Assembly (NCBI GenBank): GCA_017464685.1
Contig: JAFTYO010000003.1
Span: forward strand, 8,137-72,136
Reading direction: 5' to 3'
DNA: 64,000 nt
From: Alphaproteobacteria bacterium
GTDB lineage: Bacteria > Pseudomonadota > Alphaproteobacteria > RF32 > CAG-239
Of the stretch, positions 8,271 through 60,981 are shown piece after piece. Positions within the stretch are counted from its first letter, which is position 1. Every line of letters starts with the position of its first letter. A program made the translations under genes and the position numbers. Under the pieces are notes generated by a model. That model searched no databases and was not told where the DNA came from. It saw only the letters and a program-made list of their open reading frames with translations.

Positions 8271-9638
8271 ATGGCAAAAAAGTCAATTGTGGAATATGTT
8301 TGTAATCAGTGCGGCGCGGTTTATCCTAAATGGCAGGGAAAATGTGACTCTTGCGAACAGTGGAATACTATTGAAGAAGAAAAACTTCAGGGCGGCGGGT
8401 TTTCTATTTTGCCCAATAAGAAAAAAGGTGAAATGATAGAATTTGTACCATTAAGCGGTAATGCTCAAACTTATGACCGTCTAAAAACCAATATTAAAGA
8501 AATTGACCGAGTTACAGGTGGCGGTTTAGTCCCCGGTTCGGCAATTTTGGTCGGTGGAGACCCTGGAATCGGAAAATCGACTTTGTTGTTGCAGGTATGT
8601 GCCGGAGTTGCCAATTTGAGCAAAGATTATGAATGCTTTTATATATCTGGTGAGGAAGCTATTGACCAAGTCAGAATTAGGGCGCAAAGGTTGGGGCTTG
8701 CAAATTCGCCGGTTAAACTTGCTAGTACAACCGAGGTGAAAGATATTGTGGCAACCGTTGAAAAAGCAAATCCGACTGTTGTGATAATAGATTCTATTCA
8801 GACGATGTATTTGGAAAATGTCGAATCGACTCCGGGGAGTGTTTCTCAAGTAAGAGCTTGTGCATATGAACTGATTAAACTTGCCAAGCGCAAGGGTTTT
8901 GTATTGTTTTTGGTGGGGCATGTTACCAAGCAGGGCGCAATTGCCGGTCCAAGAATTTTGGAACATATGGTTGATACGGTTTTATATTTTGAAGGTGAAA
9001 GAGGACACCATTTCCGCATTTTGCGTGCGGTTAAAAATCGCTATGGTGCAACTGATGAAATCGGTGTTTTTGAAATGCAAGATAAAGGACTTGTTGAGGT
9101 CGAAAATCCGTCGGCATTGTTCTTGGCAGAAAGGCAAGGAAATGTTTCCGGCTCGTGCGTTTTTGCCGGTATTGAGGGCTCAAGGCCGGTTTTGGTAGAA
9201 ATTCAGGCACTTGTCAGCCAAAGCGGATATTCGAGCCCCAAAAGAGCGGTTGTCGGGTGGGATTCAAACCGATTGGCAATGGTTTTGGCGGTTTTGGAAG
9301 CCAGATGCGGTATGAATTTCAGCTCGCAAGATGTATATTTAAATATTGCCGGCGGATTAAAAATTTCGGAACCGGCGGCTGATTTGGCGGTGGCAATGGC
9401 GGTTATATCTTCACTTACCAATAAGCCTTTGCCGGCAGATATGGTTGTATTTGGTGAAATCGGTTTATCGGGTGAAATCAGAGCCGTGACACAACCGTCA
9501 CTCAGGTTAAAAGAAGCTTGTAAGTTAGGTTTTTCAAATGCAATTGTGCCGACATCGTTCGGTAAAGAAAAGAAGTCCGATATAATGTCATATTATGAAA
9601 TCGGCAATGTCAATCGTTTGATAAATTGGTTTAATTAG
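8271..9638 (+). CDS. radA: DNA repair protein RadA
   Basis: N-terminal Zn finger CNQCGAVYPKWQGKCDSCEQWNT, Walker A GDPGIGKST, KNRYG motif and a Lon-like C-terminal domain. Confidence 0.9.
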   Translation: MAKKSIVEYVCNQCGAVYPKWQGKCDSCEQWNTIEEEKLQGGGFSILPNKKKGEMIEFVPLSGNAQTYDRLKTNIKEIDRVTGGGLVPGSAILVGGDPGIGKSTLLLQVCAGVANLSKDYECFYISGEEAIDQVRIRAQRLGLANSPVKLASTTEVKDIVATVEKANPTVVIIDSIQTMYLENVESTPGSVSQVRACAYELIKLAKRKGFVLFLVGHVTKQGAIAGPRILEHMVDTVLYFEGERGHHFRILRAVKNRYGATDEIGVFEMQDKGLVEVENPSALFLAERQGNVSGSCVFAGIEGSRPVLVEIQALVSQSGYSSPKRAVVGWDSNRLAMVLAVLEARCGMNFSSQDVYLNIAGGLKISEPAADLAVAMAVISSLTNKPLPADMVVFGEIGLSGEIRAVTQPSLRLKEACKLGFSNAIVPTSFGKEKKSDIMSYYEIGNVNRLINWFN

Positions 9639-9650
9639 GAGATAAAATTA

Positions 9651-10355
9651 ATGCAACCATTGAACAATTTAGATGTTGTTATCTTGATTATTACGGCTGT
9701 TTCGGCCCTAATTGCATTGTTTAGAGGTTTGGTAAAAGAAGTGTTGTCAATTGTGGGGTGGACTTTGGCAGCGGTTGTTGTATTTTATATGTTGCCGATT
9801 TTAACCCCGATTGCCAAGAATTATATTGCAAGTTCGATGATGGCCTCAATTGTGACCGCTTTGGCGGTGCTGATTGTGTTTTATGTTGTGTGGCTGCTGA
9901 CTACCGACAAGCTTATCGGCAAAATTCGCTCGAGTAAATTAAGCGCATTAGATAGAGTTTTAGGCTTGCTTTTTGGTGTCGTAAGAGCTTGTTTGATTGT
10001 GATATTGTTTAATATTTTGCTTTCGTGGGTGTTGCCCGAGGAAAGCAAGGAAGGAATGTTTAAAGAGTCGAGATATTTTCAACTTGCCGGCGAATTTGCC
10101 AAACCGATTGAGGGGTTGATTCCCGAAGAAACCAAAAATCTGATTAAGATAAAAAAAGATGAAACCGAACAAAAAGCTGAAGAAATAAAAAAAGATGCCG
10201 AACAAAAAGCCATAGATGAACTGTTTGAAAAATTGGCACAACCGCAAATTGAAAAAGTGGTAACAAAATCGGAAGAAGAAACCGAAAACTTTGAGGGCTA
10301 TAAAGAAAACCAAACCGATAATTTGGACAGACTCATCGAGGCAACAGTGGAGTGA
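9651..10355 (+). CDS. cvpA: CvpA-family membrane protein with a K/E-rich C-terminal tail
   Basis: Four TM segments with a CvpA-like layout, followed by a charged tail. Confidence 0.6.
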   Translation: MQPLNNLDVVILIITAVSALIALFRGLVKEVLSIVGWTLAAVVVFYMLPILTPIAKNYIASSMMASIVTALAVLIVFYVVWLLTTDKLIGKIRSSKLSALDRVLGLLFGVVRACLIVILFNILLSWVLPEESKEGMFKESRYFQLAGEFAKPIEGLIPEETKNLIKIKKDETEQKAEEIKKDAEQKAIDELFEKLAQPQIEKVVTKSEEETENFEGYKENQTDNLDRLIEATVE

Positions 10356-10357
10356 AA

Positions 10358-10387
10358 ACAAAGACCTGATTTTATCAGGTCTTTGTT
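10358..10387 (+). terminator. intrinsic terminator hairpin after cvpA
   Basis: Perfect inverted repeat ACAAAGACCTGAT-TTT-ATCAGGTCTTTGT followed by T-rich sequence. Confidence 0.6.
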
Positions 10388-10398
10388 GTAGATAAAAT

Positions 10399-10605
10399 TT
10401 AGTGGGTGCGTGTGATAGTAACTGAATCTGTGTATTCACCTGCTTTAACATTGGCAGGGATATTTAAGGTAGTATCTAAAATAAGGAATATCAAATGCGA
10501 GTCATAAACATTACCGGTAATGTGAAAAATCCCCACATTGGCAAAGCTTATTTTTTTATCACCGATATTGTTTTCGGTTTTAGCCTGTGTGTAAATATAA
10601 ATGAG
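10399..10605 (-). pseudogene. promoterless, signal-peptide-less C-terminal fragment of the MRKYFLL/YTGSF secreted-protein family
   Basis: The minus-strand frame reads ..KKISFANVGIFHITGNV...LNIPANVKAGEYTDSVTITRTH*. This keeps the family's FG and G-x-Y-T-x-S-alternating C-terminal motifs. There is no ATG, no signal peptide and no promoter cassette. Confidence 0.45.
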
Positions 10606-10614
10606 GTTAGATAA

Positions 10615-11160
10615 ATGACGAAAAGTGCATCAAAAGATATATTGATTAAATTGCGACCGATAACATATTTAATCTGGTGTTTATTAATAATATTTGCAAG
10701 CATAAATATTTTTCAGATGGGGCTTGATACCAATACGCAAGGTTCAAGATGTGATTATTATTTATGGCAGGAAGGGCAGATTTATCAATGGATTATAGAC
10801 AATGAACCTTGCCGATTTACTTTAGAGTTTTTGGTCGGATATATTTTTTATTTTGTTTTATATACTTTGTTTGACTATGTTCGCAGACTGATAGTCGGTT
10901 TTAATCCGAAAACTGTTTGGCGAATTTGTGAAATCGGAGTATTATTCGGATTAATGTGGGGATATCTGCTTTGGCTTAGCGCAAACGCTTTTAACATGGT
11001 AAATTGGCAAGTGTATCTAAATTCATTTTTTGGAGTTTTATTATTTTTTATACCGATTATTTTTATTGCGATCTTGTTTCGTTTGTTTAATAATCGTACA
11101 GAATTATGCTTACTGTCATTAATTTTACTGCTCAGTTTAGGTTTTGTTATTGCAAATTAA
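10615..11160 (+). CDS. hypothetical multi-pass membrane protein
   Basis: Long ORF with 5-6 hydrophobic segments. No recognisable motif. Confidence 0.5.
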   Translation: MTKSASKDILIKLRPITYLIWCLLIIFASINIFQMGLDTNTQGSRCDYYLWQEGQIYQWIIDNEPCRFTLEFLVGYIFYFVLYTLFDYVRRLIVGFNPKTVWRICEIGVLFGLMWGYLLWLSANAFNMVNWQVYLNSFFGVLLFFIPIIFIAILFRLFNNRTELCLLSLILLLSLGFVIAN

Positions 11161-11163
11161 AAA

Positions 11164-11190
11164 CCGCTCCTTGAAAAACTCAAAGAGCGG
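11164..11190. terminator. hairpin between convergent genes (likely bidirectional terminator)
   Basis: CCGCTC(C)TT...AA(A)GAGCGG stem. The run of T on the minus strand fits the family gene ending at 11206. Confidence 0.45.
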
Positions 11191-11205
11191 TTGGAATATT
11201 AAAAA

Positions 11206-11697
11206 TTAGTAAGTTACAGTTAAAGTAAATGAACCGGTGTACTCACCTGCTAAGCTTTCCATTTCTGTATCTGCTGAACCGGGAATATAAAGAGTTGCTC
11301 CAATACGATATACATCGCCTGTATACTCGTCATAATATGCTTGGAAATCGCCTACGGTTAAATCGCCATTAGGTCCAGTAATTTTTGCATCATTTGGAAA
11401 GGTAATAGTAGAGCTATTACTAATATCACAAATTGCAGCAGACGAACCATTAACTGCTACAATCCTTTTACCACCTCCGTTATCTGTTATTTCAAAGTCA
11501 TCAAAAAGTATTTTAATATTACCCTCATTACCATCGTTTTTGTTGTCAAGAACAATATGACCGAAATTTAAAGGTGAACAAGTAATACTATCAGCCTCCG
11601 TAATTTTTGCAGTCATTTCAATTTCAGCATAATTGTCAGCGTTTGCGGTGCTTGTTGCCAAGAGTGCAATTGCGCTCAAAAGAAAATATTTTCTCAT
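11206..11697 (-). CDS. family copy 1: small secreted two-Cys beta-rich protein (SCPU/Csu-pilin-like layout)
   Basis: MRKYFLLSAIALLATSTANA signal peptide, C..NFGHI motif, a second Cys, and C-terminal AGEYTGSFTLTVTY. Preceded by the conserved cassette. Confidence 0.8.
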   Translation of the reverse strand: MRKYFLLSAIALLATSTANADNYAEIEMTAKITEADSITCSPLNFGHIVLDNKNDGNEGNIKILFDDFEITDNGGGKRIVAVNGSSAAICDISNSSTITFPNDAKITGPNGDLTVGDFQAYYDEYTGDVYRIGATLYIPGSADTEMESLAGEYTGSFTLTVTY

Positions 11698-11837
11698 AAT
11701 TTATATCCTTTCTATAAAAATTAAGTTTAAGTACATTTGAAAAGCTAAAAATTAGCCTCTCAGGTCGCATCTTAAACCGTTTTTTTTTTTTGCAAGTAAA
11801 AAGAGTCTTAATGTGAATTTAAATCAAAAATGGTGTA
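11698..11837 (-). promoter_or_regulatory. family promoter/5'UTR cassette, copy 1 (T12 tract 11780-11791)
   Basis: The reverse complement reads ..TTTGATTTAAAT..GACTCTTTTTACTTGC-A12-CGGTTTAAGATGCGACCTGAGAGGCTAATTTTTAGCTTTTCA..AGGA..ATG. It is nearly identical to the cassette at 29194-29331. Confidence 0.6.
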
Positions 11838-11976
11838 GAGGTGTTGCCTCCTTTACTGTCATACCGGTGCCCAAGCTTTAGCTTGGAATAGACACCGGTA
11901 TCCAGGGAATAATTTAGCTATATTACCACCTGGACTCCGGCATCAAGTGCCGGAGTGACAGTTAGGAGGTGGTTGC
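11838..11976 (+). repeat. structured repeat element A (long hairpin with two internal stem-loops)
   Basis: Arms GCCTCCTTTACTGTCA (11846-11861) and TGACAGTTAGGAGG (11956-11969). Inner hairpins CCAAGC-TTTA-GCTTGG (11871-11886) and CTCCGGCA-TCAA-GTGCCGGAG. Related copies lie at 57393-57505 and 37515-37650. Confidence 0.55.
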
Positions 11977-12206
11977 AAAGTATGAGAATAAAAAACAAAT
12001 ATTTTCCGATTAGTATTAATTCGAAGGCCCCAAGACATTTTTGCTAACTACAAAAATCAGTGGTGACTTTGTTTTTTACTTTTGAAATATATTAATGTAA
12101 ATGCCGAAAATATTGTTTTTAATATATTTTTATTGATATTTTGGATTTTTCGTGTTATAACAAATTTTGTAATGAAAATAACAATAATTTTTGAAAGGAA
12201 AAAAAT

Positions 12207-13094
12207 ATGTATAATTATCCAAAATATCAATCTTATGAACAAACTTACGACACAGGATATTCGAATAAGAATTTTCTTAATAAGCTTAAAGAATATGCCA
12301 ATCGGCAAAGATACTATGATACTATGTATGGAGGTTGGCATGGTATTGGTTGGAAAAATAATATAATGAGAACATTAACCCCAGATTATGATAATTTTTT
12401 AAAACCAAATAATATGACAGAACAGGGTATTAAGTATGCTCAAAATAACTATTCCGGTGTTGTAGCCGATACTAGTTATTATGACACTTATGATAGAAAT
12501 GTTGATTACTATTTTAATCGTGATAAAAATGATTTGTGTGAAAATGAAGGTGGATTTATACCATATGCCTATTTAGATACAGCTAAGCCACCAAAAACTA
12601 CCATAGGTTGCGGTATAAACATTGAAGATATTCCAAATGTACAATTATATCATGCTCAAACCGGAAACATTTTAAGTGATGAAGAATTACAATCAGAAAT
12701 GGAAAAATTAAAAGAATCGTATTTACATAATGGTAAACCGTCTTTTTATGAGAACAAATCAAATATTCGCATTGCGCAAGAAGAAAATGACCGTATAATG
12801 AAAATGTTATATACGCAAGGATATAATCATATGTTATCAAAATATCCTGATTATCATAGTTATACTCAAGGCAGGCAGAAATATTTAATGGATATGATAT
12901 ATAATTTAGGCCAACCTAAGTTTGATAAATATGTTAATATGCGTGATGCTATTTTACAAAATAATTGGAAACAAGCGGCTAATGAGGCATGGCGTTGTGG
13001 AGTTGATTTTGGTAGGAACAAAAGAACACTTGATAATATGTATCCGGGATTAAATGTTTATGAAATAAGTAAGGAGCATTGTAATTATGATTGA
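12207..13094 (+). CDS. GH24 (phage/T4-type) lysozyme-like protein with a Tyr/Asn-rich N-terminal extension and no signal peptide
   Basis: CENEGGFIPYAYLDTAKPPKTTIGCGIN matches the lysozyme E...D...T-I-G-x-G catalytic core. C-terminal W..AANEAWRCG..GRNKR. The N-terminus MYNYPKYQSYEQ is not hydrophobic. Confidence 0.6.
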   Translation: MYNYPKYQSYEQTYDTGYSNKNFLNKLKEYANRQRYYDTMYGGWHGIGWKNNIMRTLTPDYDNFLKPNNMTEQGIKYAQNNYSGVVADTSYYDTYDRNVDYYFNRDKNDLCENEGGFIPYAYLDTAKPPKTTIGCGINIEDIPNVQLYHAQTGNILSDEELQSEMEKLKESYLHNGKPSFYENKSNIRIAQEENDRIMKMLYTQGYNHMLSKYPDYHSYTQGRQKYLMDMIYNLGQPKFDKYVNMRDAILQNNWKQAANEAWRCGVDFGRNKRTLDNMYPGLNVYEISKEHCNYD

Positions 13095-13803
13095 TATAAA
13101 AAATATGTTTAAAACAGTGATTCTTGTTTTTATTTGTATGGGATATTTTGAAACTCAAGCAAAATATCCTGAAAATTGTGTTTTTTTAATTTCGGGAGAA
13201 TGTTTTGATTGTAACTCCGCTTATACTTTACAGATGGGACATGAGCAAAACTGTGTCACACATTGCCCGAACAGATTTTATCGTAAGGGTAAATATTACA
13301 AAACCTGTCAATTAACAGATGATAATACACTTAATTTTCCAAAATTGTTTTTTGATTCGGAAAATACTTCAAGGGAAAATTGCAAAAAAGACGGATATTT
13401 TTACGGCATTCATAATGATGATTGCTATTCATGTGACACAACAGCTCCGGTTTTTATATCGCCATCTTGTGCCCAAGATAAAAATTGCATACAACAATGT
13501 CCTAATCGCACAATTTTATATGTTTCGCAAACCGAAGTGGTAAGTGTGACAAAGTGTCCGACAGAGCGTCCCTTAATGGATAAATTTTTATTATGTTGGA
13601 GTTGCGATGAAACCACGCCTATTGATATGAGTTTTAATCAGGATAAAATTTGGGATACTGCGCAAAATCCTTGCTTAGGATTGCGATATATAGATAAAAT
13701 AAGCAATCCGTTCAGTATGCTTTGTCCGGAAGATAAAAAGAATTTATCTGAAGAAGCTTGTCATCAATGTCTGGGAATATGGAAAGACAATCAATGTAAA
13801 TAA
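13087..13803 (+). CDS. secreted cysteine-rich protein with furin-like/growth-factor-receptor-like C-x2-C...C-x3-CP repeats
   Basis: Signal peptide (VILVFICMGYFETQA) and about 28 Cys. Repeated CFDCNS..NCVTHCPNRFY / CYSCDT..NCIQQCPNRTILY / CWSCDE units. The start overlaps the lysozyme-like gene by 8 nt. Confidence 0.65.
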   Translation: MIDIKNMFKTVILVFICMGYFETQAKYPENCVFLISGECFDCNSAYTLQMGHEQNCVTHCPNRFYRKGKYYKTCQLTDDNTLNFPKLFFDSENTSRENCKKDGYFYGIHNDDCYSCDTTAPVFISPSCAQDKNCIQQCPNRTILYVSQTEVVSVTKCPTERPLMDKFLLCWSCDETTPIDMSFNQDKIWDTAQNPCLGLRYIDKISNPFSMLCPEDKKNLSEEACHQCLGIWKDNQCK

Positions 13804-13814
13804 AAAAACATATT

Positions 13815-13849
13815 AAAAAACCGCCTCGAGGTTATTAAGCCCGAGGCGG
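13815..13849 (-). terminator. intrinsic terminator of family copy 2 (possibly bidirectional)
   Basis: CCGCCTCG...CGAGGCGG 8-bp stem, with a T6 run on the minus strand (A6 at 13815-13820). Confidence 0.65.
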
Positions 13850-13856
13850 CAAATTA

Positions 13857-14312
13857 CTATGCAGAAAGAAATGTTACCTCAAATGATCCGGTATAACTTG
13901 TAGGAGTTACACCCGCAGGAATGGATAAAGTTCCATTAATTGAGTTATACTCCCATTGTTCAGGCTTAAATGTTAAAACTTTTGATTCGCCCTCTGCACT
14001 TAGGGTTACAGTTTCAGATGAAAAATACATGACAGATGCTGCATCTAATTGACAATAAGCAGCCTCTGGGGCATCAGCACTTACAAAATCAGGACTGTCA
14101 CTTTCCGTAGTTACATCATTAATTAGTCTAACATTTACATCGCCATGACCGGCTTTTAAATAAAGAGTGCCAAAATTCACATCAGAACAATTAACTTCAT
14201 TTGCGTGTGCAATAGTAACATTAACCGCTAATTCTGAATATGCATTACTTTCAGCATCAACATTTGTTGCCATCATCAAAGCCGCAGCAGTAAGAAGAAA
14301 ATATTTTCTCAT
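13857..14312 (-). CDS. family copy 2: small secreted two-Cys beta-rich protein
   Basis: MRKYFLLTAAALMMATNVDA signal peptide, C..NFGTLY motif, a second Cys, and C-terminal SYTGSFEVTFLSA. Confidence 0.8.
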   Translation of the reverse strand: MRKYFLLTAAALMMATNVDAESNAYSELAVNVTIAHANEVNCSDVNFGTLYLKAGHGDVNVRLINDVTTESDSPDFVSADAPEAAYCQLDAASVMYFSSETVTLSAEGESKVLTFKPEQWEYNSINGTLSIPAGVTPTSYTGSFEVTFLSA

Positions 14313-14449
14313 AATTTGTATCCTTTACAAAAATTAAGTTTAAATGTACTTGAAAGGAATCAAAATTAACCTTTCAAGATGCATCATAAACCGTTTTTTT
14401 TTTGCAAGTAAAAAGAGTCTTTGTGAATATTTAAATCAATTTTGAGGTA
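14313..14449 (-). promoter_or_regulatory. family promoter/5'UTR cassette, copy 2 (T10 tract 14394-14403; type-B UTR hairpin)
   Basis: The reverse complement reads ACCTCAAAATTGATTTAAAT..GACTCTTTTTACTTGC-A10-CGGTTTATGATGCATCTTGAAAGG..CCTTTCAAG..AGGA..ATG. Confidence 0.6.
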
Positions 14450-14959
14450 TTAAATTATTCCGCAAGCAATTCTTTTACCACCACCGCCAAGAGGTAAAGG
14501 ATTATCTTTATAATTATCTCCACCGGAATGTATCATAATTGAACGATTTTTAAAATCTTTTACTTTTACGTTTTTGATATAAAACTTTCGTTTTACCGAA
14601 CCGTCAGAATCAACCATTAAATATGGCAAATCTCCTAAGTGTCCACCGCCGTTAGGTCCGAGATGTTTACCGGTTTTATATGGATCGTAATGCCCTCCGG
14701 CTTTGTGTGCAAACTCTATTTGACCATTTTTATTTGTAACTGCTGCACAGTCCGGATATTCATGGACATGAAAACCATGTTTTCCCTGTGGTAAATTTGT
14801 TAGACTTACTTCAACTAAAAGCCCGTTAAATGTATCTTTAAACCAAACAGTACCTATTTTTCTATTATTTGCTTCGGTTAAATATATATCAGATTTTATA
14901 CGCTGTTGATGGTTTGCACAGCTTATAACTAGCATACATACAAACAATATATATCTCAT
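14450..14959 (-). CDS. sodC: periplasmic Cu/Zn superoxide dismutase (probable lipoprotein)
   Basis: GFHVHE, GGHYDP and GGGGKRIACGII motifs. Lipobox-like LVISC in the signal peptide. Confidence 0.9.
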   Translation of the reverse strand: MRYILFVCMLVISCANHQQRIKSDIYLTEANNRKIGTVWFKDTFNGLLVEVSLTNLPQGKHGFHVHEYPDCAAVTNKNGQIEFAHKAGGHYDPYKTGKHLGPNGGGHLGDLPYLMVDSDGSVKRKFYIKNVKVKDFKNRSIMIHSGGDNYKDNPLPLGGGGKRIACGII

Positions 14960-15120
14960 ATTTTTTCTCCTCTTGAGGATATAATCAAAAATATAAAAAA
15001 AACAATCTATAACTTAGCAAAATTTGTGTATGTTATGCACTTAGCTTCAAAAAACACTTATCAAAAAAAACTTTGTAGTGTATAGTCTTTACAAAATAAT
15101 TTTTTAAAGGACTACTTATC

Positions 15121-15789
15121 ATGAAAAAAGTTTTTTTATCACCATTTTTCGCACCTGTTATTTTTATACTGTGTTGGTTTGTTTTGCTTGCCATTGTATT
15201 GATTTATTTTCCGGATCAAAAATATCAACTCACTTTTGACGGTCAAATAATAGACGTTTTAACCAATATAGGTTATATGTTTATGCTTGCGGCATTGTTA
15301 TATTTCAGTAAAGATTATACTGATAAAATTACATCTTGGGGAATATATTTATTTTTAGGTATGACCGCATATTTGCGTGAGGCCGGCATCCAACATCATC
15401 TTTCAAAAACAGATACGACACCTTTTAAATCGCGTTTTTTCTTAAAACCAGAAAATCCGATAGGTGAAAAAATTGTTTTTGGTATACTATTGCTGATTAT
15501 TTTTGGGGCGGTTTTATATCTGCTGATTAAATATGCCAAGCATCTTATAATATCTTTTTTTAAGTTTAATACCGTAACTTGGACCATTGCAGTATTTTGT
15601 TCAGTATTGGTATTTTCAAAATTTGCCGATAGATTTCCCGGAAATTGGCGAGATGCTCATAATGATGTTTCGTTACCGCAATCGCAAATTGAAATATGGT
15701 CGCTTTTAGAAGAAAGTATTGAAATTTTTATTCCGTATTTGGTAGTTTTAGCTTTAGCTCAATATCACTTATTAAAGAAAAAAAATTAA
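15121..15789 (+). CDS. hypothetical multi-pass membrane protein
   Basis: Six hydrophobic segments. No recognised motif. Confidence 0.5.
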   Translation: MKKVFLSPFFAPVIFILCWFVLLAIVLIYFPDQKYQLTFDGQIIDVLTNIGYMFMLAALLYFSKDYTDKITSWGIYLFLGMTAYLREAGIQHHLSKTDTTPFKSRFFLKPENPIGEKIVFGILLLIIFGAVLYLLIKYAKHLIISFFKFNTVTWTIAVFCSVLVFSKFADRFPGNWRDAHNDVSLPQSQIEIWSLLEESIEIFIPYLVVLALAQYHLLKKKN

Positions 15790-15807
15790 ATTATATTATA
15801 TTTCAAG

Positions 15808-15835
15808 CCTCTCATTAAGAGAGGTTTGTTTTTAC
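15808..15835 (+). terminator. intrinsic terminator
   Basis: CCTCTC-ATTAA-GAGAGG hairpin followed by TTTGTTTTT. Confidence 0.55.
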
Positions 15836-15968
15836 CTCAAATTTGATTTAAATATTCACAAAGACTCTTTTTACTTGCAAAAAAAAACGGTTTATGATGC
15901 GACCTGAGAGGCTAATTTTTAGCTTTTCAAATGTACTTAAACTTAATTTTTGTAAAGGATTTAAAATT
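15834..15968 (+). promoter_or_regulatory. family promoter/5'UTR cassette, copy 3 (A9 tract 15879-15887)
   Basis: ACCTCAAATTTGATTTAAAT, then TTTACT (15870-15875), a 17-nt spacer and TATGAT (15893-15898). A UTR hairpin TGAGAGGCTA/TAGCTTTTCA and AAGGA precede the ATG at 15969. Confidence 0.6.
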
Positions 15969-16430
15969 ATGAGAAAATATTTTCTTTTATCTGCCGTAGC
16001 CATCATGGCTGCAACAAATGTAAATGCAACAACCGATTACGCAGAAATAACAGCTGAAGCAACCGTTAGTGTAGCAAAAGTATTACAATGTGCCAGCTAT
16101 ACCTTAAATATGGGAACTTTTACGATAAAAGAAGGCAATAATCCTATTGATATAATGGCTATGGATACTAGTAGCCCTTATTATGATTCTTCAGACATAA
16201 TCAATTTTGATATTCCTGAGACTAGTTATATATCCTGCTACGATGTAGATTTTTCAAGCGACTATGCCACATTTCCTAATAGAATTGATTTAACAGGAAC
16301 AACTCATAAACAAACTATACAAGCTTATTTATATGCTAGTGGAAGTGAAGTGCGTGGAATGCCCATTTTCCCTGCCGATGTTAAAGCTGATACTTACACC
16401 GGCTCATTCACCATAACATATACATATTAA
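15969..16430 (+). CDS. family copy 3: small secreted two-Cys beta-rich protein
   Basis: MRKYFLLSAVAIMAATNVNA signal peptide, two Cys, and C-terminal DTYTGSFTITYTY. The track ORF (15894) reads through the UTR, so the conserved ATG at 15969 is used. Confidence 0.8.
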   Translation: MRKYFLLSAVAIMAATNVNATTDYAEITAEATVSVAKVLQCASYTLNMGTFTIKEGNNPIDIMAMDTSSPYYDSSDIINFDIPETSYISCYDVDFSSDYATFPNRIDLTGTTHKQTIQAYLYASGSEVRGMPIFPADVKADTYTGSFTITYTY

Positions 16431-16440
16431 TCAAAACTTA

Positions 16441-16464
16441 CCGCCTCACAAGAGGCGGTTTTTT
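16441..16464 (+). terminator. intrinsic terminator of family copy 3
   Basis: CCGCCTC-ACAA-GAGGCGG followed by T6. Confidence 0.7.
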
Positions 16465-29121: not shown

Positions 29122-29193
29122 TTTTCAAACAATTTATAAGGGAAGGTAAAAACCTTCCCTTAATGTTTTCTAAAAATTTTTCAAATATAAAAG

Positions 29194-29331
29194 CACCTCA
29201 AATTTGATTTAAATTCTTTAAACGACTCTTTTTACTTGCAAAAAAAAAAACGGTTTAAGATGCGACCTGAGAGGCTAATTTTTAGCTTTTCAAATGTACT
29301 TAAACTTAATTTTTATAGAAAGGATTAAATT
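29194..29331 (+). promoter_or_regulatory. family promoter/5'UTR cassette, copy 4 (A11 tract 29240-29250)
   Basis: CACCTCAAATTTGATTTAAAT..GACTCTTTTTACTTGC-A11-CGGTTTAAGATGCGACCTGAGAGGCTAATTTTTAGCTTTTCA..AGGA..ATG. Confidence 0.6.
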
Positions 29332-29799
29332 ATGAGAAAATATTTTCTTCTTGGTGCTGTGGCAATGCTTGCCGCAAGCAATGCAAGTGCTGAGAATACA
29401 ACATATACATTAGAGGCGCAAGCCAAAGTTGCTTTATCATCTAAAGTAAATTGCACAACTTGGGATTGGGGTACAATTTATCTTAACGACCTTGAGATTG
29501 ACAATATTGAATTACAAGCATATGGTGCAGAAATCACTCCAAGCGGTACTGATGTTGATAAGTTTTCGGATATTATAGGATATAAATCAGCCGTTTGTGA
29601 AGGGATTTCATATGAGGGAAGTGTTTATTTACCCGATTTTTTCGTAATTAATGATGGTGGTATAGGAATGAGAATAGAAAACATTACAATAGATGAGGAA
29701 TATGTATTAAGCGGAACACTTGTTTTAGACAGTGGTGGTGTACCTTATGATACATCCAGAACTTACACAGGTTCAGTTACTTTTACTGTTATAAATTAA
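29332..29799 (+). CDS. family copy 4: small secreted two-Cys beta-rich protein
   Basis: MRKYFLLGAVAMLAASNASA signal peptide, C..WDWGTIY motif, a second Cys, and C-terminal RTYTGSVTFTVIN. Confidence 0.8.
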   Translation: MRKYFLLGAVAMLAASNASAENTTYTLEAQAKVALSSKVNCTTWDWGTIYLNDLEIDNIELQAYGAEITPSGTDVDKFSDIIGYKSAVCEGISYEGSVYLPDFFVINDGGIGMRIENITIDEEYVLSGTLVLDSGGVPYDTSRTYTGSVTFTVIN

Positions 29800-29803
29800 C
29801 ATT

Positions 29804-29837
29804 AAACCCCGAGAAATATATTTATTTCTCGGGGTTT
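29804..29837. terminator. bidirectional terminator hairpin between family copy 4 and rnj
   Basis: AAACCCCGAGAAATA...TATTTCTCGGGGTTT, a 15-bp inverted repeat. Confidence 0.65.
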
Positions 29838-29841
29838 AATT

Positions 29842-39865: not shown

Positions 39866-42800
39866 ATGTCTTTAAATCGCAAATTTCGTGCAATTGTTGC
39901 TCTTATAACAGTCGTATGTTTTAGTTATAATTCATATGCAGCATCTTCCCAAGTGGTTGATTCGCTGTATAATTATGCCCACAATAAACAAGTTAGTAAA
40001 ATTAAGTATATGCTTAATACTATGGGGTATGATATTGATGTTGAAGATGAAGACGGAGTTACTGCTTGGTGCTTAGCTAAAGAAAGCAACGATACTTGTG
40101 CGATGGGCGTATTGGAGCAAATGGGTGCCGATACGGAACAAAGATGTGGTTTACCTTGGGGTTACATTGGTGCAGCTGCCGGTGTGGTAGCGGTAGGTGG
40201 TGCAATTGCAGCCGCTGCCGGTGGCGGCGGTGGCGGATCGGATCCGTGTTCGGGTGTGGTTTGCGGAGATAATGAGCATTGTTTGAAAGGACAATGTGTA
40301 TGTAATGCCGGTTTCTTAGAATTTGATGATGTTTGTTATCCGGATTTAAATTGTTCAGCACAAAAAAATTCTGATGGAAAACAATATAAAGATGCATGTA
40401 ATTGTATAAACGGATTTTCAGGAAATTTATGTACCGAATGTACCGGAGTTTTAGGAAATGATGGTATCTGTTATGAAAAATTGGATTGTGGTCAAGAACA
40501 TCAAGGTTATCAGCAAAATGGGGCCTGCATATGTATAAATGATTATAGTGGAACGGATTGCCAAACATGTAATGGACATGATGAAAGTCAAACTTGTTGG
40601 GAAAAACTTGATTGCGGTGATAACGGATATCAGAAAAACAATGAATGTCATTGTGAAAACGGTTATACAGGGGAAAATTGTCGTACGTGTGACGGACAGA
40701 TTGGTATTGATGGTAAATGTTATCCGACAGCTACATGTTTAAATGGAGGATATCAGATAAACGATGGTTGTAAGTGTATCAATGGTTACACCGGAGTGTT
40801 GTGTGAAACATGTAATGGTTATGAAGAAAATGGTACATGTTGGGAAAAACTCGAATGTGGTGATCATGGAACTCAAAAAAATGATATGTGTGTTTGTAAA
40901 GACGGTTATTCGGGAAGCGATTGTACTACATGTACGGGTTATGTTGGAGCTGATGATGGTATTTGTTATTCGGATGTAAGATGCGCAAATGGTGGAACAC
41001 AAGTTGGAGGAGTTTGTGATTGTACAAATGCCAACGGTTATAGCGGAACATACTGTGATGTTTGTGAAGGCGTTGTTCAAAATGGTATTTGTTACGAAAA
41101 GAAAGAATGTCAAAATGGCGATCAGGTAGCAAATGAGTGTGTATGTGATAAAAATTGGGACGGTGAGTTGTGTGATGTTTGTCCTACATATCTGCAAGAT
41201 GGTATATGTTATGATAAAGTAGAGTGTCAAAATGGCGGAACTCAAGATAAATACGGTTGTGATTGTACAAATGCCAACGGTTATAGCGGTGAGTTATGTG
41301 ATGTTTGTGCAGGAACGAAACAAGGCAGTGTATGTTATCCTACATTAACCTGTAATAACGGGACGCAAGTTGAGAACAGATGTGAATGTTATGAAGGCTA
41401 TGATGGTGCGGATTGTACGGAGTGTGCTACAGGATACGATCATTATGGTGATGAAACTCAGTGCTATAAAACTTTAGAAAGCGAAGATTGTGTACATGGT
41501 TCTCAACAGGGCAACAATTGTGTGTGTGAAGGTTATTGGAGCGGTACTAAATGTGACACCTGTACAGGTGTTGAGCAAGATGGTGCTTGTTATCAAACTC
41601 TTGAGTGTGGAGAACATGGCACACAAGTAGGAAATACTTGTGAATGTGAAGAAAATTATTATCGTGATGGAACAGGTAAATGTGTATCATCAAGTGATGC
41701 GGTAACGATGAATACCTTTGACGGTAACAATAACTATATGTTTAATGAATCCGTTTCAAAAACCCAACAAAATTATGGTGATGTATATGGTTTGGTATAT
41801 GATGCAGATCCGGCAAATCCGACTAACCATATTACGGGTGATCAATATGATATGTATATTAATTATCTCGATAATGAGGAAGAATCGGACGAAGTTAAAA
41901 ACACCAGAACTTTAACTCTTAATAACTTGGGTGATGGAAATGTTTACGGTGTGTATTCCAAGAATGCCGAAAATATGTATTTGACATATCTTGATTTACA
42001 GGCAGCAGTTACTCAAGGAACACAGACAACAAATCTTACCATTAATAACGGTGGTGAAATAGTAGGTACTCAAGGTCTTGTAAGTGGTGGAAATGGTGAG
42101 GTGTATGGTATTTGGAGTACCGGTTCCACAGATGTTTATAATATGGCACAGGATTTGGGTACGGATATTGACAATACGGTAAATATGTCATCTGAAATAA
42201 ATATTAGCGGTATCGGAACGGGCGATCTCTATGGTATGTATAATAATGAATACGGAAATTTAAACAATGGGTTATACGATGTTGTAGAGGATAAAAACAT
42301 AATAACCGATAATGCTGTTATAAATGTGGAAAGTAAGGGCTCAGGTACAGTATATGGAATGAGGAGCTATGGTGGTAATATTATTAATTCCGGTGTTGTT
42401 GATGTTTCAAGTGCATCAGGTGATGCACATGGTATATATGTCGATGATTTAGGGGATGTTCTTAATTTACACAAGGTTATTGTTGAAGGTAATAAGTCTG
42501 ATGCTACCGGTATTGACAATCGTGGTTATGGTGATGTGACAAATTCAGGTACTGTTGATGTTTCCGGAAACACGAGCAGTATGTGGGGTATTTTTTCATC
42601 ATCGGGCTTAGTATCAAATCAAGGAACGGTAACTGTTACAAATAATTCAGGTTCTGTTTCCGGTATTCATGCTTCAGATAGCAGTGTGGAAAATTCCGGA
42701 GCCATAACGGTTTCCAATACAGGAGATAATCCTGCTTATGGTATTTATACTACAAATAATAGTGTGGAAAATTCCGGTGATATAACGGTTTCCAATACAG

Positions 42801-57091: not shown

Positions 57092-57253
57092 TTAATAAGT
57101 TGTATATACGCTACCGGTATAACTGCCTGTAGGTATATTTTGGTATGTTGCAGGAATAACTAAATCGCCACCAATATTAATTTTATTTTCTTCACTATAT
57201 GTTTTTAAATTGTTAATATGAAGTTCAACAGTAAGAAGAAAATATTTTCTCAT
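57092..57253 (-). pseudogene. family copy 5: internally deleted remnant (53 codons)
   Basis: MRKYFLLT is joined directly to VELHINNLKTY...PTGSYTGSVYTTY*. The signal-peptide core and most of the mature domain are missing. The promoter cassette is intact. Confidence 0.6.
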
Positions 57254-57392
57254 AATTTTATCCTTTATATAAAAATTAAGTTTAAGTACCTTTGAAAGGT
57301 GCAAAAATCCACCTTTCAAGACGCATCATAAACCGTTTTTTTTTTTTGCAAGTAAAAAGAGTCTGTTTGTAGATTTAAATCAAAAATGATGT
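57254..57392 (-). promoter_or_regulatory. family promoter/5'UTR cassette, copy 5 (T12 tract 57336-57347; type-B UTR hairpin)
   Basis: The reverse complement reads CATTTTTGATTTAAAT..GACTCTTTTTACTTGC-A12-CGGTTTATGATGCGTCTTGAAAGGTG..CACCTTTCAA..AGGA..ATG. Confidence 0.6.
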
Positions 57393-57505
57393 GGCGGTGT
57401 GGCCTCCAACACCATCATACCGGTGCCCGAACTTTAGTTCGGAATAGATACCGGCGTCTAATCTTCGCTAGCGCTCAGGCGCAGAAATGACGATATTGAG
57501 AGAAA
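57393..57505 (+). repeat. structured repeat element B
   Basis: GGCCTCC..CATACCGGTGCCCGAACTTTAGTTCGGAATAGATACCGG aligns with element A. The inner hairpin CCGAAC-TTTA-GTTCGG (57427-57442) differs from A by two compensatory pairs. Confidence 0.55.
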
Positions 57506-57606
57506 CACCTCAAAGATGACTAAATATCCACAAAGAAGACTCGCATAAATTGCAAAAAAAAAAACGGTTTATGATGAGCTCAAAATATATTATAGGAGTT
57601 AGTTTG
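57506..57606 (+). promoter_or_regulatory. diverged family-type promoter module driving pilin-like gene 2 (A11 tract 57554-57564)
   Basis: CACCTCAAAGATGACTAAAT..AAGACTCGCATAAATTGC-A11-CGGTTTATGATG parallels the family cassette. AGGAG precedes the ATG at 57607. Confidence 0.5.
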
Positions 57607-58239
57607 ATGAGAAAAATTTGTGAACTTGGCAGAAGTATGGTGGAGATGTTAGGTGTTCTTGCAATTATTGGTGTTCTTTCCGTCGGTGGTATCACAGGTT
57701 ACTCAAAAGCGATGATGAAATATAAACTCAACAAGCATGCTCAGCAATTAAGTCAATTATTAAACACTTTATACAGATATAAAAACAGTTGGGGTGAAAA
57801 TCCTCCCCCAATGGAACTTGGGGGATATTTTATTACAATGGGAGAAATTCCTGAAGAAATGATTATAGATGGCTCAAACGTTCTTCAAGATTCATTTGAT
57901 AACCGAATACATATGCAAACAAATGGATGTTCCAATAATGGATGTACTGATGTAATCTTAAGATATACTGTTGGTGAAAATAATGATATAGAACTCTGCC
58001 AAAACATATTTACAGTAGCAAAAAGTTTTCATCAAAATTTGTATGTTGCCGGAGCTTATAAAACAACACAAGATAATTCAATAGAACAATATGATAATGA
58101 CAGATTTTATGGTGATAAATATTGTGATGGAAAAAATTGTCTTAGAAATCTAACTCTGGACGATATATACAATAAATGTCAATACTTGGCAGATAGAGTC
58201 TCAGGAAGCTACTATTTCCTATTTAATCTAAACGACTAA
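57607..58239 (+). CDS. type IV pilin / pseudopilin-like protein 2
   Basis: MRKICELGRSMVEMLGVLAIIGVLSVGGITGYSKAM is nearly identical at protein level to the N-terminus of the gene at 32301-32843. The C-terminal domain is unrelated and Cys-containing. Confidence 0.7.
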   Translation: MRKICELGRSMVEMLGVLAIIGVLSVGGITGYSKAMMKYKLNKHAQQLSQLLNTLYRYKNSWGENPPPMELGGYFITMGEIPEEMIIDGSNVLQDSFDNRIHMQTNGCSNNGCTDVILRYTVGENNDIELCQNIFTVAKSFHQNLYVAGAYKTTQDNSIEQYDNDRFYGDKYCDGKNCLRNLTLDDIYNKCQYLADRVSGSYYFLFNLND

Positions 58240-58269
58240 GGACAAATATTATTTTTTTGTAAAATTGAC

Positions 58270-58758
58270 TTACTGCAATATCCCGCTTATCGGAAACAGA
58301 GCTTGTTGAGGTGTAATATGTTGTGTTATCACCGCATTAAACACCGGATACATATGCTCACATTCATTGACGGCAATTTCAATTATCTGATTGAGCTTTT
58401 CTTCAAAGCTTTCTTCTTGTGCTTGCAAGATGATTGAGTGTTTGAAAATCGGCATTTTGTGTTCGCTCCAATATGAAAAATGTCCGAGCCACAAATTTTC
58501 ATTCACCATTGCCAACAACTCAAACACTTTACTTAAATCCGAAATGTCAACATTAATATTCATCAAACAGGAAAAATGCAAACATTTAAGGTGTTCTTCC
58601 CAAGCAAAAAACAACAACATATTATTCCATTTGCCTTCAATTTCAACTACAACTTCATTGATGTTTCTGCGTTCAAATTCGGCCGATTTTTTGGCAAAAA
58701 TCAACTCAAGCGAATCTATCGGATTATAATATGTCTCAAAATTTGAGGCCGGTAACAT
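58270..58758 (-). CDS. YbjN-domain (putative sensory transduction/chaperone-like) protein
   Basis: 162-aa acidic protein. The F..W.......F layout (NMLLFFAWEEHLKCLHFSC...) is as remembered for alphaproteobacterial YbjN-family proteins. Tentative. Confidence 0.4.
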   Translation of the reverse strand: MLPASNFETYYNPIDSLELIFAKKSAEFERRNINEVVVEIEGKWNNMLLFFAWEEHLKCLHFSCLMNINVDISDLSKVFELLAMVNENLWLGHFSYWSEHKMPIFKHSIILQAQEESFEEKLNQIIEIAVNECEHMYPVFNAVITQHITPQQALFPISGILQ

Positions 58759-58997
58759 TTTTTTAGCACCTTAAATAAAAAACAACTGTTGTTACAATAG
58801 CCTTGTCGAGTCATTTTTAACAACAAAGTTTAAAAAGTTTTCCACTAAATATATTTTTTCACAAAAATATATTTAAAAAAATAAACAAAATCAACACACT
58901 AGTAAACAACAAAAAAAAGTTTTAATTTTATGTGTGGATTATCTGATTTTTTTAATATAGTTTTAAGTAATTGTTCAATCTTAAAAAGGTAAAGAAA

Positions 58998-59795
58998 ATG
59001 ACAGGATTATCATATCCGGATATTTCACCGATTATATTTTCTATTGGTCCTCTTGCCATCAGATGGTATTCCATGGCCTACTTATTGGGTATTATCGCTG
59101 CTTGGTTTTTAATATCAAAAGATATAAAAAAATATGATATCTGTCTAAGCAAAGCAAATTTAGAAGACATTGTTTTTTATGTAACTTTAGGCATTGTGTT
59201 GGGTGGACGTATCGGATATGTGTTGTTTTACGGTTTTGACACTTTTTATAACAATCCTCTCGAAATTTTTGCTATTTGGCATGGTGGTATGTCGTTTCAT
59301 GGGGGCATAATCGGGGTTATAATCGCCATTTATTTGGTTTCAAAAAAAATTAAATATCCTTTTTTGGGTATAACAGATTTGGCTGCACTTTATACTCCTA
59401 TCGGCATTTTTTGCGGCCGGTTAGCCAATTTTGCCAATGATGAATTATGGGGACGTATAACCGATGTTCCTTGGGCTGTAAAATTTCCCTCAGGCGGATA
59501 CTTACCGAGACATCCATCACAAATTTATGAGGCTTTGACCGAAGGTTTATTGTTGTTAATAATTTTAAACCTTCTATGGCAAAATTTATGGATTCGCAAA
59601 CATACCGGATTTGTTTCGGGAATGTTCTTAATTTTATACGGCATATTCAGAATGTTTATAGAACAATTCAGACAACCGGACAATCATTTGGGCTTTGTGT
59701 TTTTAAATTTCACTATGGGACAAATGCTTTCTGTTCCGTTTATAGTTATCGGAATTTTGGTTATCTGTGTCTCGCTAAAAAAATTTAAGCCTTAG
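58998..59795 (+). CDS. lgt: prolipoprotein diacylglyceryl transferase
   Basis: IRWYSMAYLLG, GGRIGYVLFY, GGMSFHGG and HPSQIYEA motifs. Confidence 0.9.
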   Translation: MTGLSYPDISPIIFSIGPLAIRWYSMAYLLGIIAAWFLISKDIKKYDICLSKANLEDIVFYVTLGIVLGGRIGYVLFYGFDTFYNNPLEIFAIWHGGMSFHGGIIGVIIAIYLVSKKIKYPFLGITDLAALYTPIGIFCGRLANFANDELWGRITDVPWAVKFPSGGYLPRHPSQIYEALTEGLLLLIILNLLWQNLWIRKHTGFVSGMFLILYGIFRMFIEQFRQPDNHLGFVFLNFTMGQMLSVPFIVIGILVICVSLKKFKP

Positions 59796-60930: not shown

Positions 60931-60981
60931 TTTTATTCTCCGTTCAATTTTTTATCAAACATAATATTAAAGTATGATAGT

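Follow-up and report, generated by a model that had tools for sequence, protein, structure and literature searches.

Dispersed DUF4402 genes on a common promoter cassette as candidate subunits of a chaperone-usher pilus in an uncultured alphaproteobacterium

The window analyzed here is a stretch of 64,000 nucleotides (nt) from an uncultured alphaproteobacterium (assembly GCA_017464685.1, contig JAFTYO010000003.1, positions 8,137 to 72,136 of the forward strand), in which five dispersed loci begin with one and the same nucleotide block and encode small secreted proteins with two conserved cysteines. By sequence comparison, these proteins belong to the Pfam family DUF4402, members of which are found in other places encoded in one operon together with a usher-fold protein and a chaperone resembling PapD. 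It therefore seems probable that the dispersed genes encode alternative single-domain major subunits of a divergent, usher-dependent chaperone-usher pilus of DUF4402 type. Its machine would be encoded once, elsewhere in the genome, and would consist of a two-domain DUF4402 protein resembling a tip subunit, a PapD-like periplasmic chaperone, and an outer-membrane protein of usher fold.

The gene family and its proteins

The 18-nt start block ATGAGAAAATATTTTCTT occurs exactly five times in the window, whereas 0.03 occurrences are expected by chance. It heads four intact genes and one internally deleted gene; a promoterless relic of the family is present in addition. The common nucleotide start, the reading frames, and the relic had been described in an original prediction made from the sequence alone, and all of them were recovered as follows (aa, amino acids):

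10399-10605 (-): relic, a promoterless C-terminal family fragment retaining the motif GEYTDSVTIT
11206-11697 (-): copy 1, intact, 163 aa; start block at 11680-11697
13857-14312 (-): copy 2, intact, 151 aa; start block at 14295-14312
15969-16430 (+): copy 3, intact, 153 aa; start block at 15969-15986
29332-29799 (+): copy 4, intact, 155 aa; start block at 29332-29349
57092-57253 (-): copy 5, internally deleted, 53 aa, the signal-peptide start being fused to the C-terminal strand region; start block at 57236-57253

Copy 1 is the sole window copy that on its own exceeds the gathering cut-off of DUF4402 (PF14352; 29.0 bits, E 1.8e-6, cut-off 25.2), while copy 2 (19.9 bits) and the truncated copy (15.2 bits) score below it. 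Among 113 relatives, 102 matched DUF4402 at E<=1, with a best E of 4.5e-10, and it is to this family, not to the spore coat protein U family SCPU, that the sequence comparison assigns the proteins. Full-text literature searches for 'DUF4402' and 'PF14352' returned no paper.

The conserved protein framework originally proposed from the window copies holds across the 113 relatives. Their consensus runs from a signal peptide (MRKYFLL..A) and a strand Y-A-E-x-x-A-x-A to Cys40, which is followed by xxFG, and on to a second cysteine near position 90 and a C-terminal Y-x-G-x-F-T. As read from the sequence, the signal peptide is of the Sec type (MRK, a hydrophobic core, and (A/S/V)-x-A) and nearly invariant. 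It ends A-N-A, followed by T, E, or D; the first cysteine comes ~20 residues into the mature protein, and a lipobox with a cysteine at position +1 of the mature protein is not present. Entropy, computed along the 113-sequence alignment, is distributed over the protein as follows:

Signal peptide: 0.55 bits
First 16 mature residues (N-terminal strand): 0.76 bits
Cys1-xDFGTIVV strand: 1.39 bits
Middle, ~70 residues: 2.96 bits
C-terminal GEYTGSFTVTVTY: 1.39 bits

In chaperone-usher pilins such as those of the Fim, Pap, and Csu systems, a strand at the N-terminus acts as the donor, and the groove that accepts it is bounded by the first and the last strand of the core. Since the N-terminal, post-Cys1, and C-terminal strands are the best-conserved parts of the family and the middle is hypervariable, the conservation profile fits that of assembly interfaces. 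For the first 16 mature residues the consensus is TDYAEVTAKATIEVA, in which A, V, A, A, I, and V take up alternate positions. In its pattern, this segment, which lies outside the core, resembles a donor strand, with small or hydrophobic residues in alternation. An AlphaFold model of copy 1 based on the 113-sequence alignment (pLDDT 83) forms a beta sandwich from about residue 47, and its first 25 mature residues are unstructured and of low confidence, so that the N-terminal strand lies outside the core. The top matches of this model in a Foldseek search of the Protein Data Bank (PDB) were CfaB, CS17, and PapK, all of them weak (E 0.056-0.45, TM 0.31-0.37, 10-13% identity). For the pilin likeness put forward originally, the structure thus offers a beta sandwich with pilins foremost but weakly matched.

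The family is large. An exact-pattern scan for its upstream cassette, with one genome per species, found at least 95 stretches, all of which, among the matches listed, come from the metagenome-assembled genome (MAG) SIG55 ('Alphaproteobacteria bacterium isolate SIG55', GCA_015062345.1). SIG55 represents a sister species of the window organism (18 shared proteins, mean identity 91%). In the 674 kb of SIG55 DNA covered by our counts, at least 117 cassettes conform to a strict pattern and three more are variants; intact open reading frames (ORFs) of ~140-185 aa starting MRKYFL follow 108 of them, and cassettes and genes occupy roughly 80 kb of the DNA examined. Protein searches yielded 177 clusters in one case and, with a representative library, 516 in another. 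All named matches of the former are MAGs of uncultured Alphaproteobacteria. The matches listed for the latter are close relatives only, every sequence inspected carrying the same MRKYFLL signal peptide, and no bridge to other families was found among them. Scans of JGI metagenome contigs with a sodC pattern and with the cassette pattern gave no match, although JGI-sourced contigs do contain the family.

Between SIG55 copies, pairwise identity has a median of 38%; between a copy and its closest paralogue, the median is 52%. Compared with the 108 SIG55 copies, the four window proteins find best matches of 36-46%, as opposed to ~91% for housekeeping proteins. At a syntenic site, copy 4 and the copy on L073 are 42% identical between flanking genes that are 83-96% identical; the relic at 10399-10605 adjoins cvpA, where SIG55 has an intact copy (P0115). 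For the window loci, in turn, identical proteins are encoded on as many as 11 contigs of ENA and Logan assemblies (sample labels, e.g., XIEF21-1), that of copy 2 being found on 9 contigs and that of copy 4 on 11. From the identical proteins across samples and the low best matches across species, it follows that the repertoire is stable within a species and almost wholly replaced between sister species.

A chaperone-usher operon elsewhere in the genome

No window ORF that was scanned matched a chaperone or usher family. The original prediction had stated that such genes are missing, which is true of the 64 kb window but not of the organism, whose genome has one operon. The lead came from SIG55, where a truncated ORF beside a family member has a full form of 1074 aa, P0224, retrieved by a scan for large outer-membrane proteins; other large SIG55 ORFs considered as the outer-membrane machine proved to be unrelated proteins, unlike P0224. 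DUF4402 genes in operons with a PapD-like chaperone and a usher-fold protein were found in three lineages. The operons contain:

SIG55, locus L110: 315-aa protein with two DUF4402 domains (E 1.5e-30)
SIG55, locus L110: 256-aa protein with a PapD_N match (E 2.1e-7; score 31.4 bits, cut-off 23), named 'molecular chaperone' by NCBI
SIG55, locus L110: P0224, 1074 aa, usher-fold family
Distant lineage, L111/L112: 179-aa single-domain DUF4402 protein (E 2.8e-24), 304-aa two-domain DUF4402 protein, 256-aa protein, and 851-aa protein
Window organism, L114, in gene order: 317-aa two-domain DUF4402 protein, 266-aa chaperone, 947-aa usher, and 123-aa ORF

Judged by its model, the large protein of the operon has the usher fold of FimD and PapC. 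An AlphaFold model of the 851-aa usher homologue from the distant lineage (P0338, pLDDT 82.8) was matched by Foldseek over its full length to FimD (3rfz_B, E 9.4e-29) and PapC (7lhg_C, E 6.8e-23). Complete ushers scored between 9.4e-29 and 7.6e-20 over ~750-890 aligned columns, translocation pores alone ~1e-16. The Usher hidden Markov model (HMM) PF00577 matched neither P0224 nor P0338, for which only CarboxypepD_reg was matched, and a precomputed PF00577 match exists for 3 of the 120 usher homologues listed. Usher-fold homologues in Elusimicrobia indicate that the DUF4402-type system reaches beyond Alphaproteobacteria; those designated P0295, P0296, P0303, and P0310 carry an extra OmpA-like domain (PF00691).

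The usher of the window organism, P0225, is 91% identical to that of SIG55 and was found in five samples, and sample ERZ28654512 contains both P0225 and the window's own loci. On L114—one of the two operon contigs, L113 and L114—positions 9345-14844 correspond to window positions 57505-63003 at 99.98% identity, with the usher operon directly to the left. This match and the usher in ERZ28654512 place the operon in the window organism. To the left of 57505 the two sequences are unrelated, the window continuing with a histidine kinase and the truncated copy, and L114 with the usher operon. The breakpoint is the start of a sixth promoter, described below (window 57400-57505 compared with L114:8845-9345 and with L113), and the difference reflects either a real strain rearrangement at the repeat or a mis-join in one of the assemblies.

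In the genus of the window organism, LptF/G lies directly upstream of the two-domain gene, which leaves the operon without a gene for a single-domain subunit. Subunits of this kind would then have to come from the dispersed family. The two-domain operon protein ends NMNFGTI...GNYTGSFTVNLTY and thus presents the same strands as the family consensus. The 179-aa DUF4402 protein of the distant lineage also has a family-like layout, with an alternating strand at the N-terminus, MNFGKV after it, and GTYNGTYTVTVNY at the C-terminus, but lacks the cysteines. One SIG55 family copy alone adjoins the operon.

According to the scheme that we propose, the operon would have lost the in-operon single-domain subunit gene that the distant lineage keeps. 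Each subunit gene would constitute its own transcription unit, expressed from the common promoter with its A tract just upstream of the -10 box, and a 5′-proximal stem-loop would stabilize the mRNA. Translation led by a Shine-Dalgarno sequence and the invariant Sec signal peptide MRKYFLLSAVALLA..ANA would bring about export. Thereafter, the N-terminal strand (T)DYAEVTAKATIEVA, which has a small or hydrophobic residue at every second position, would serve as the donor strand. The acceptor groove, formed by the strand after Cys1 (xDFGTIVV) and the C-terminal strand, would initially be filled by the chaperone, whose place the next subunit would take, with the hypervariable middle as the exposed surface. 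The two-domain operon protein could accept the donor strand of the family, and one machine could draw on more than 100 antigenically distinct subunits for its fibers. Polymerization, donor-strand exchange, the identity of the expressed copies, and the role of the hairpin are steps that we infer.

Several points weigh against a pilus. Nearly all copies are unlinked to the operon, and co-function is argued from membership in the family and from the absence of a single-domain subunit gene from the operon; to our knowledge, no usher serves more than 100 unlinked subunit genes. Searched singly, copies 3 and 4 gave no DUF4402 match. A profile search of the family against PDB sequences, which include CsuA/B and the SCPU protein 8cio, found nothing at E up to 10, and no PDB match of the copy 1 model in Foldseek reached E<=0.001. 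The chaperone call, the least secure of the assignments, consists of one Pfam match and a top PDB match at E 0.049 (the pilus chaperone 4ncd, with a 15-sequence profile); phmmer found no match for the chaperone in the PDB.

The products might then be stand-alone DUF4402-fold proteins—secreted, periplasmic, or at the surface, non-polymerizing, and usher-independent—acting as binding proteins, as decoys for phage or host factors, or as envelope components. That all copies are monocistronic and unlinked to the operon and that none has a significant match among solved pilins would agree with such a role, as would the two conserved cysteines: their absence from the 179-aa in-operon subunit of the distant lineage indicates that the family diverged from a canonical subunit. 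Yet the best-conserved parts of the proteins are those that pilins need for assembly, the C-terminal motif is also found in the operon's two-domain protein, and the genus operon is left without a single-domain subunit. We regard stand-alone proteins as unlikely, though as the best of the alternatives to a pilus subunit.

The promoter cassette and its A tract

An alignment of the upstream regions shows that the five window copies share ~145 nt of sequence immediately 5′ of the ATG. Read in the direction of the gene, the cassette consists of (T)ACCTCAxxTTTGATTTAAAT..GACTCTTTTTACTTGC, an A tract, an invariant CGGTT-TA(T/A)GAT-G with a -10-like hexamer, a stem-loop ~5-7 nt past the latter, an A/T-rich spacer, the Shine-Dalgarno sequence AAGGA, and the ATG. 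Cassettes and terminators are located as follows:

11698-11842 (-): copy 1 cassette, with conserved block TTGATTTAAAT..CTTTTTACTTGC, A12 tract at 11780-11791, CGGTT-TAAGAT with the -10-like hexamer at 11769-11774, hairpin of the 5′ untranslated region (5′UTR) at 11738-11762, and Shine-Dalgarno sequence AAGGA
11162-11192 (-): copy 1 intrinsic terminator
14313-14455 (-): copy 2 cassette, with A10 tract at 14394-14403 and hairpin CUUGAAAGG/CCUUUCAAG
13815-13850 (-): copy 2 intrinsic terminator, GCCGCCTCG..CGAGGCGG followed by T6, read directly from the sequence
15827-15968 (+): copy 3 cassette, with A9 tract at 15879-15887; TTTACT-17-TATGAT called by the promoter scan
16440-16459 (+): copy 3 intrinsic terminator
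29190-29331 (+): copy 4 cassette, with A11 tract at 29240-29250
29801-29840 (+): copy 4 intrinsic terminator
57254-57400 (-): copy 5 cassette, with A12 tract at 57336-57347
57505-57575 (+): sixth promoter core (CACCTCAAAGATGACTAAAT..AATTGC-A11-CGGTTTATGATG), with a short leader to 57606 that has no hairpin
57607-58239 (+): type-IV-pilin-like gene under the sixth promoter, N-terminus MRKICELG|RSMVEMLGVLAIIGVLS, prepilin motif read from the sequence

An intrinsic terminator is present 3′ of copy 5 as well as of all four intact copies. Having its own cassette upstream (5/5) and its own intrinsic terminator, every copy is a self-contained transcription unit, in agreement with the monocistronic arrangement first described. 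Gene callers misplace the start of copy 3 at an ATG at 15894 inside the 5′UTR, which yields a protein of 178 aa with a spurious MMRPERLIFSFSNVLKLNF.. extension; the leader reading frame of this extension is also open in copies 1 and 5.

The cassette is near-identical between copies even at synonymous sites, which suggests gene conversion or nucleotide-level selection on the 5′ block. In all five window leaders a 9-11-bp hairpin folds with modest energies (z-scores -1.1 to -2.7), its stem-loop core being UGAAAGG/CCUUUCA. At core positions 2-7 of 116 cassettes, all variants are A-to-G on the 5′ arm or C-to-U on the 3′ arm; 43 variant cells retain a G:U pair and one disrupts pairing, and position 8 alternates between U:A, U:G, and C:G. 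Such one-sided variation is, to judge from these alignments, the pattern expected of selection on sense-strand RNA and not of a DNA palindrome. No Rfam match was obtained for the 5′UTR. The stem-loop of the ompA leader protects its mRNA, and by analogy a stem-loop close to the likely 5′ end may stabilize or protect the mRNA here.

The core of the sixth promoter drives an unrelated, prepilin-like gene, so the promoter module appears to be common to two surface-fiber gene families. This gene has no Pfam match; it has SIG55 paralogues at ~55% identity.

A tract of A9-A12 sits between TTGC and CGGTT-TATGAT in all six window promoters, measuring 12, 10, 9, 11, and 12 nt in copies 1-5 and 11 nt in the sixth promoter. 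A homopolymer 5 nt upstream of the -10-like TATGAT in every promoter raises the question of phase-variable surface antigens, slippage in the promoter A tract toggling single copies; such switching would be compatible with a role of the products as pilins. Tract length does differ between loci, in the window and in SIG55 (A12 in 97 cassettes, A11 in 13, A13 in three, A9 in two, A8 in two), as it does between syntenic loci of the two species. If TTTACT is taken as the -35 box (A9 giving a 17-nt spacer), only the A9 and A10 copies fall within the 16-18-nt spacer range of the promoter scan, which calls TTTACT-17/18-TATGAT for these copies only. However, conservation in the sixth promoter, as in a hybrid promoter on L092, is limited to ..TTGC-A(n)-CGGTTTATGATG; TTTACT is conserved in neither, which weakens its candidacy and makes the -35 assignment uncertain. 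Tract length is, moreover, constant per locus across independent assemblies, which were compared through exact-protein look-ups:

P0104 locus (SIG55 species): A11 in 10 assemblies
P0115 locus (SIG55 species): A9 in 5 assemblies
Window copy 2: A10 in 3 assemblies
Window copy 3: A9 in 2 assemblies
Window copy 4: A11 in 2 assemblies

Two apparent exceptions were discarded as assembly artefacts: the A12 allele of copy 4 on L105 is a chimera with the copy 1 cassette at a contig end in the repeat, and L083 is cut 10 nt from its contig end inside the repeat. Since the same length per locus is seen in up to 10 independent assemblies—consensus sequences, in which minority tract alleles would be hidden and rare switching could escape notice—switching by slippage is not supported, and we consider it distinctly unlikely. 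Tract length may rather be a fixed, locus-specific feature of the promoter that sets different expression levels by locus. Of the variable surface-antigen family that had been envisaged, the variability stands, the bodies being hypervariable between paralogues and between sister species, but no switching was seen and the loci are identical across samples.

The cassette also leaves its mark on assemblies. Contigs L002, L003, L101, and L105-L107 end 10-60 nt upstream of a family gene or within the cassette; the repeat both breaks and mis-joins assemblies, and L105 bears the cassette of another copy. A second repeat, of ~118 nt and with two hairpins, lies just upstream of cassette 1 (11855-11972, minus strand), with a partial copy at 57373-57454. 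It is found upstream of many cassettes in the same orientation, with at least 50 copies in the SIG55 DNA and tandems of up to four (for example, L078:7031-7768). RNAalifold predicts 23 pairs in it, 6 with compensatory changes; one-sided changes mostly keep G:U pairs, with the gene-sense strand as the RNA, and Rfam returned no match for the repeat. An IS110-family (DEDD) transposase lies directly upstream of one family member (L129:1-1320 and L127:185-1117, both on JGI contigs from the SIG55 species). Upstream of the transposase, L129 carries one 118-nt repeat copy, which 82-nt perfect inverted repeats flank, and several SIG55 contig or block ends bear partial copies of IS110-family transposases. 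The 118-nt repeat may be a target of the IS110-family element, or the L129 palindrome may be an assembly artefact.

Relation to known systems and implications

The closest parallel is offered by Bordetella, where fim2, fim3, fimX, and fimN are served by fimBCD: like the window family, these genes have homopolymeric promoter tracts, and they provide one machine with alternative subunits, as is proposed here. Bordetella subunits are of the Pfam Fimbrial-type, whereas those described here are DUF4402 proteins. Four or five subunit genes in Bordetella contrast with at least 117 in the sister genome and five in 64 kb here. The Bordetella tract is poly(C) and varies between isolates, while the present one is poly(A) and stable across assemblies; unlike in Bordetella, the whole promoter/leader/signal-peptide block is near-identical in every copy. 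One study reports that the loss of a single C from the fim3 promoter changes expression and the phenotype (PMC10172299). Each fim major-subunit gene of Bordetella is monocistronic and lies apart from the others as well as from the one operon for chaperone, usher, and adhesin (PMC4447244). A subunit gene in or next to the operon is therefore usual but not obligatory.

The likeness to Csu and other SCPU (PF05229) systems comprises small subunits, an N-terminal alternating donor strand, one Cys pair, xNFG, and a C-terminal G-x-Y...V-T-x-x-(F/Y). Csu pili are made with a two-domain tip subunit, CsuE, a chaperone, and a usher, and a two-domain tip-type subunit, a chaperone, and a usher are encoded here as well. 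The family might accordingly be taken for ordinary archaic (sigma) SCPU/Csu pilins, its layout resembling that of CsuA/B 7zl4_A (alternating strand, Cys, xNFG, second Cys, G-x-Y-x-x-x-x-x-V-T-x-x-(F/Y)) and its C-terminal motif being paired with that of CsuA/B by hhalign. We think this improbable. PF05229 does not appear among the 25 families with the most hits in the set of 113 relatives, and hhalign, with a CsuA/B query 155/155 identical to 7zl4_A, aligned the family profile over the C-terminal 13 columns only (E 0.28). The PDB profile search, which covers CsuA/B and 8cio, was empty; significant HMM, profile, or fold matches were not obtained; and the usher, with its CarboxypepD_reg-like domain, is missed by PF00577. 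In addition, Csu subunit genes lie inside the operon and those of the present family are dispersed. Since PF05229 is not among the matched families listed and the CsuA/B alignment is confined to 13 columns, membership in SCPU/Csu is not supported. Of the SCPU/Csu-like pilin suggested by the original prediction, the attribution to pilin subunits is kept, on the strength of DUF4402 genes in chaperone-usher operons, and the attribution to SCPU/Csu is not.

The best structural neighbors of the subunit model, weak as they are (E 0.06-0.45), are the class 5 pilins of enterotoxigenic Escherichia coli (ETEC; CfaB of CFA/I and CS17) and PapK, Ig-like pilins that are assembled by donor-strand exchange. 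In the Vlp multigene family of Mycoplasma hyorhinis, promoter, 5′UTR, and signal peptide form a conserved block, the bodies diverge, and each promoter contains a poly(A) tract, an arrangement that recurs in the window family. Vlp proteins are, however, lipoproteins with tandem-repeat bodies, encoded at one locus and subject to high-frequency tract switching, whereas the proteins described here have no lipobox Cys and a beta-sandwich body, and their genes are dispersed, with stable tracts. A large dispersed reservoir of variant pilin sequence in a small genome is also known from Neisseria pilE/pilS. The pilS copies are silent and promoterless and act by gene conversion into one expression site of a type IV pilus; in contrast, every copy here has a promoter, a ribosome-binding site, a signal peptide, and a terminator. 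The window family is best described as kin to the chaperone-usher pili with unlinked major-subunit genes, such as those of Bordetella, the new features being DUF4402 subunits, a sequence-divergent usher, and more than 100 dispersed genes on one cassette.

It is scarcely credible that the common 5′ sequence represents a selfish or mobile repeat, with ORFs downstream that make up no functional family: the cassette is near-identical at synonymous sites, assemblies break at it, and the 118-nt repeat often and an IS110-family transposase once lie alongside, but 108 intact ORFs of uniform length keep the two cysteines, the FG motif, and the C-terminal strand at ~38% median identity, identical proteins persist across many samples, and each copy has its own terminator.

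Other window genes may be mentioned briefly. At 39866-44446 (+), an autotransporter of 1526 aa is encoded whose passenger domain contains Cys-rich EGF/teneurin-like repeats. Between copies 1 and 2, at 12207-13803 (+), lie two overlapping genes, the first encoding 295 aa with a weak phage-lysozyme-like match and the second a Cys-rich protein of 238 aa with an apparent signal peptide and no Pfam match.

If the dispersed genes do encode subunits of a chaperone-usher pilus, a role as pilus subunit would be assigned to DUF4402, and chaperone-usher systems with a missed class of usher would have been overlooked by HMM-based censuses. No larger case would be known in which many unlinked subunit genes supply a single assembly machine. 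On the practical side, the cassette breaks and mis-joins metagenome assemblies, and gene callers are misled into 25-residue N-terminal extensions. That the repertoire is replaced almost entirely between species sharing ~91% amino-acid identity suggests that the surface of this uncultured gut bacterium is under strong diversifying pressure, the source of which could be phage, host immunity, or competitors. More tentatively, DUF4402 systems might represent an unrecognized clade of chaperone-usher pili with ushers that the Usher HMM misses. In one genus of uncultured gut Alphaproteobacteria, the major-subunit gene would have left the operon and expanded to more than 100 dispersed genes, each with its own promoter, fixed A-tract differences or rare slippage selecting the few copies that are expressed. 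Should this possibility hold, the organism would possess a combinatorial fiber library that is almost fully replaced between sister species, and with it a new route to surface variation in a small-genome commensal.

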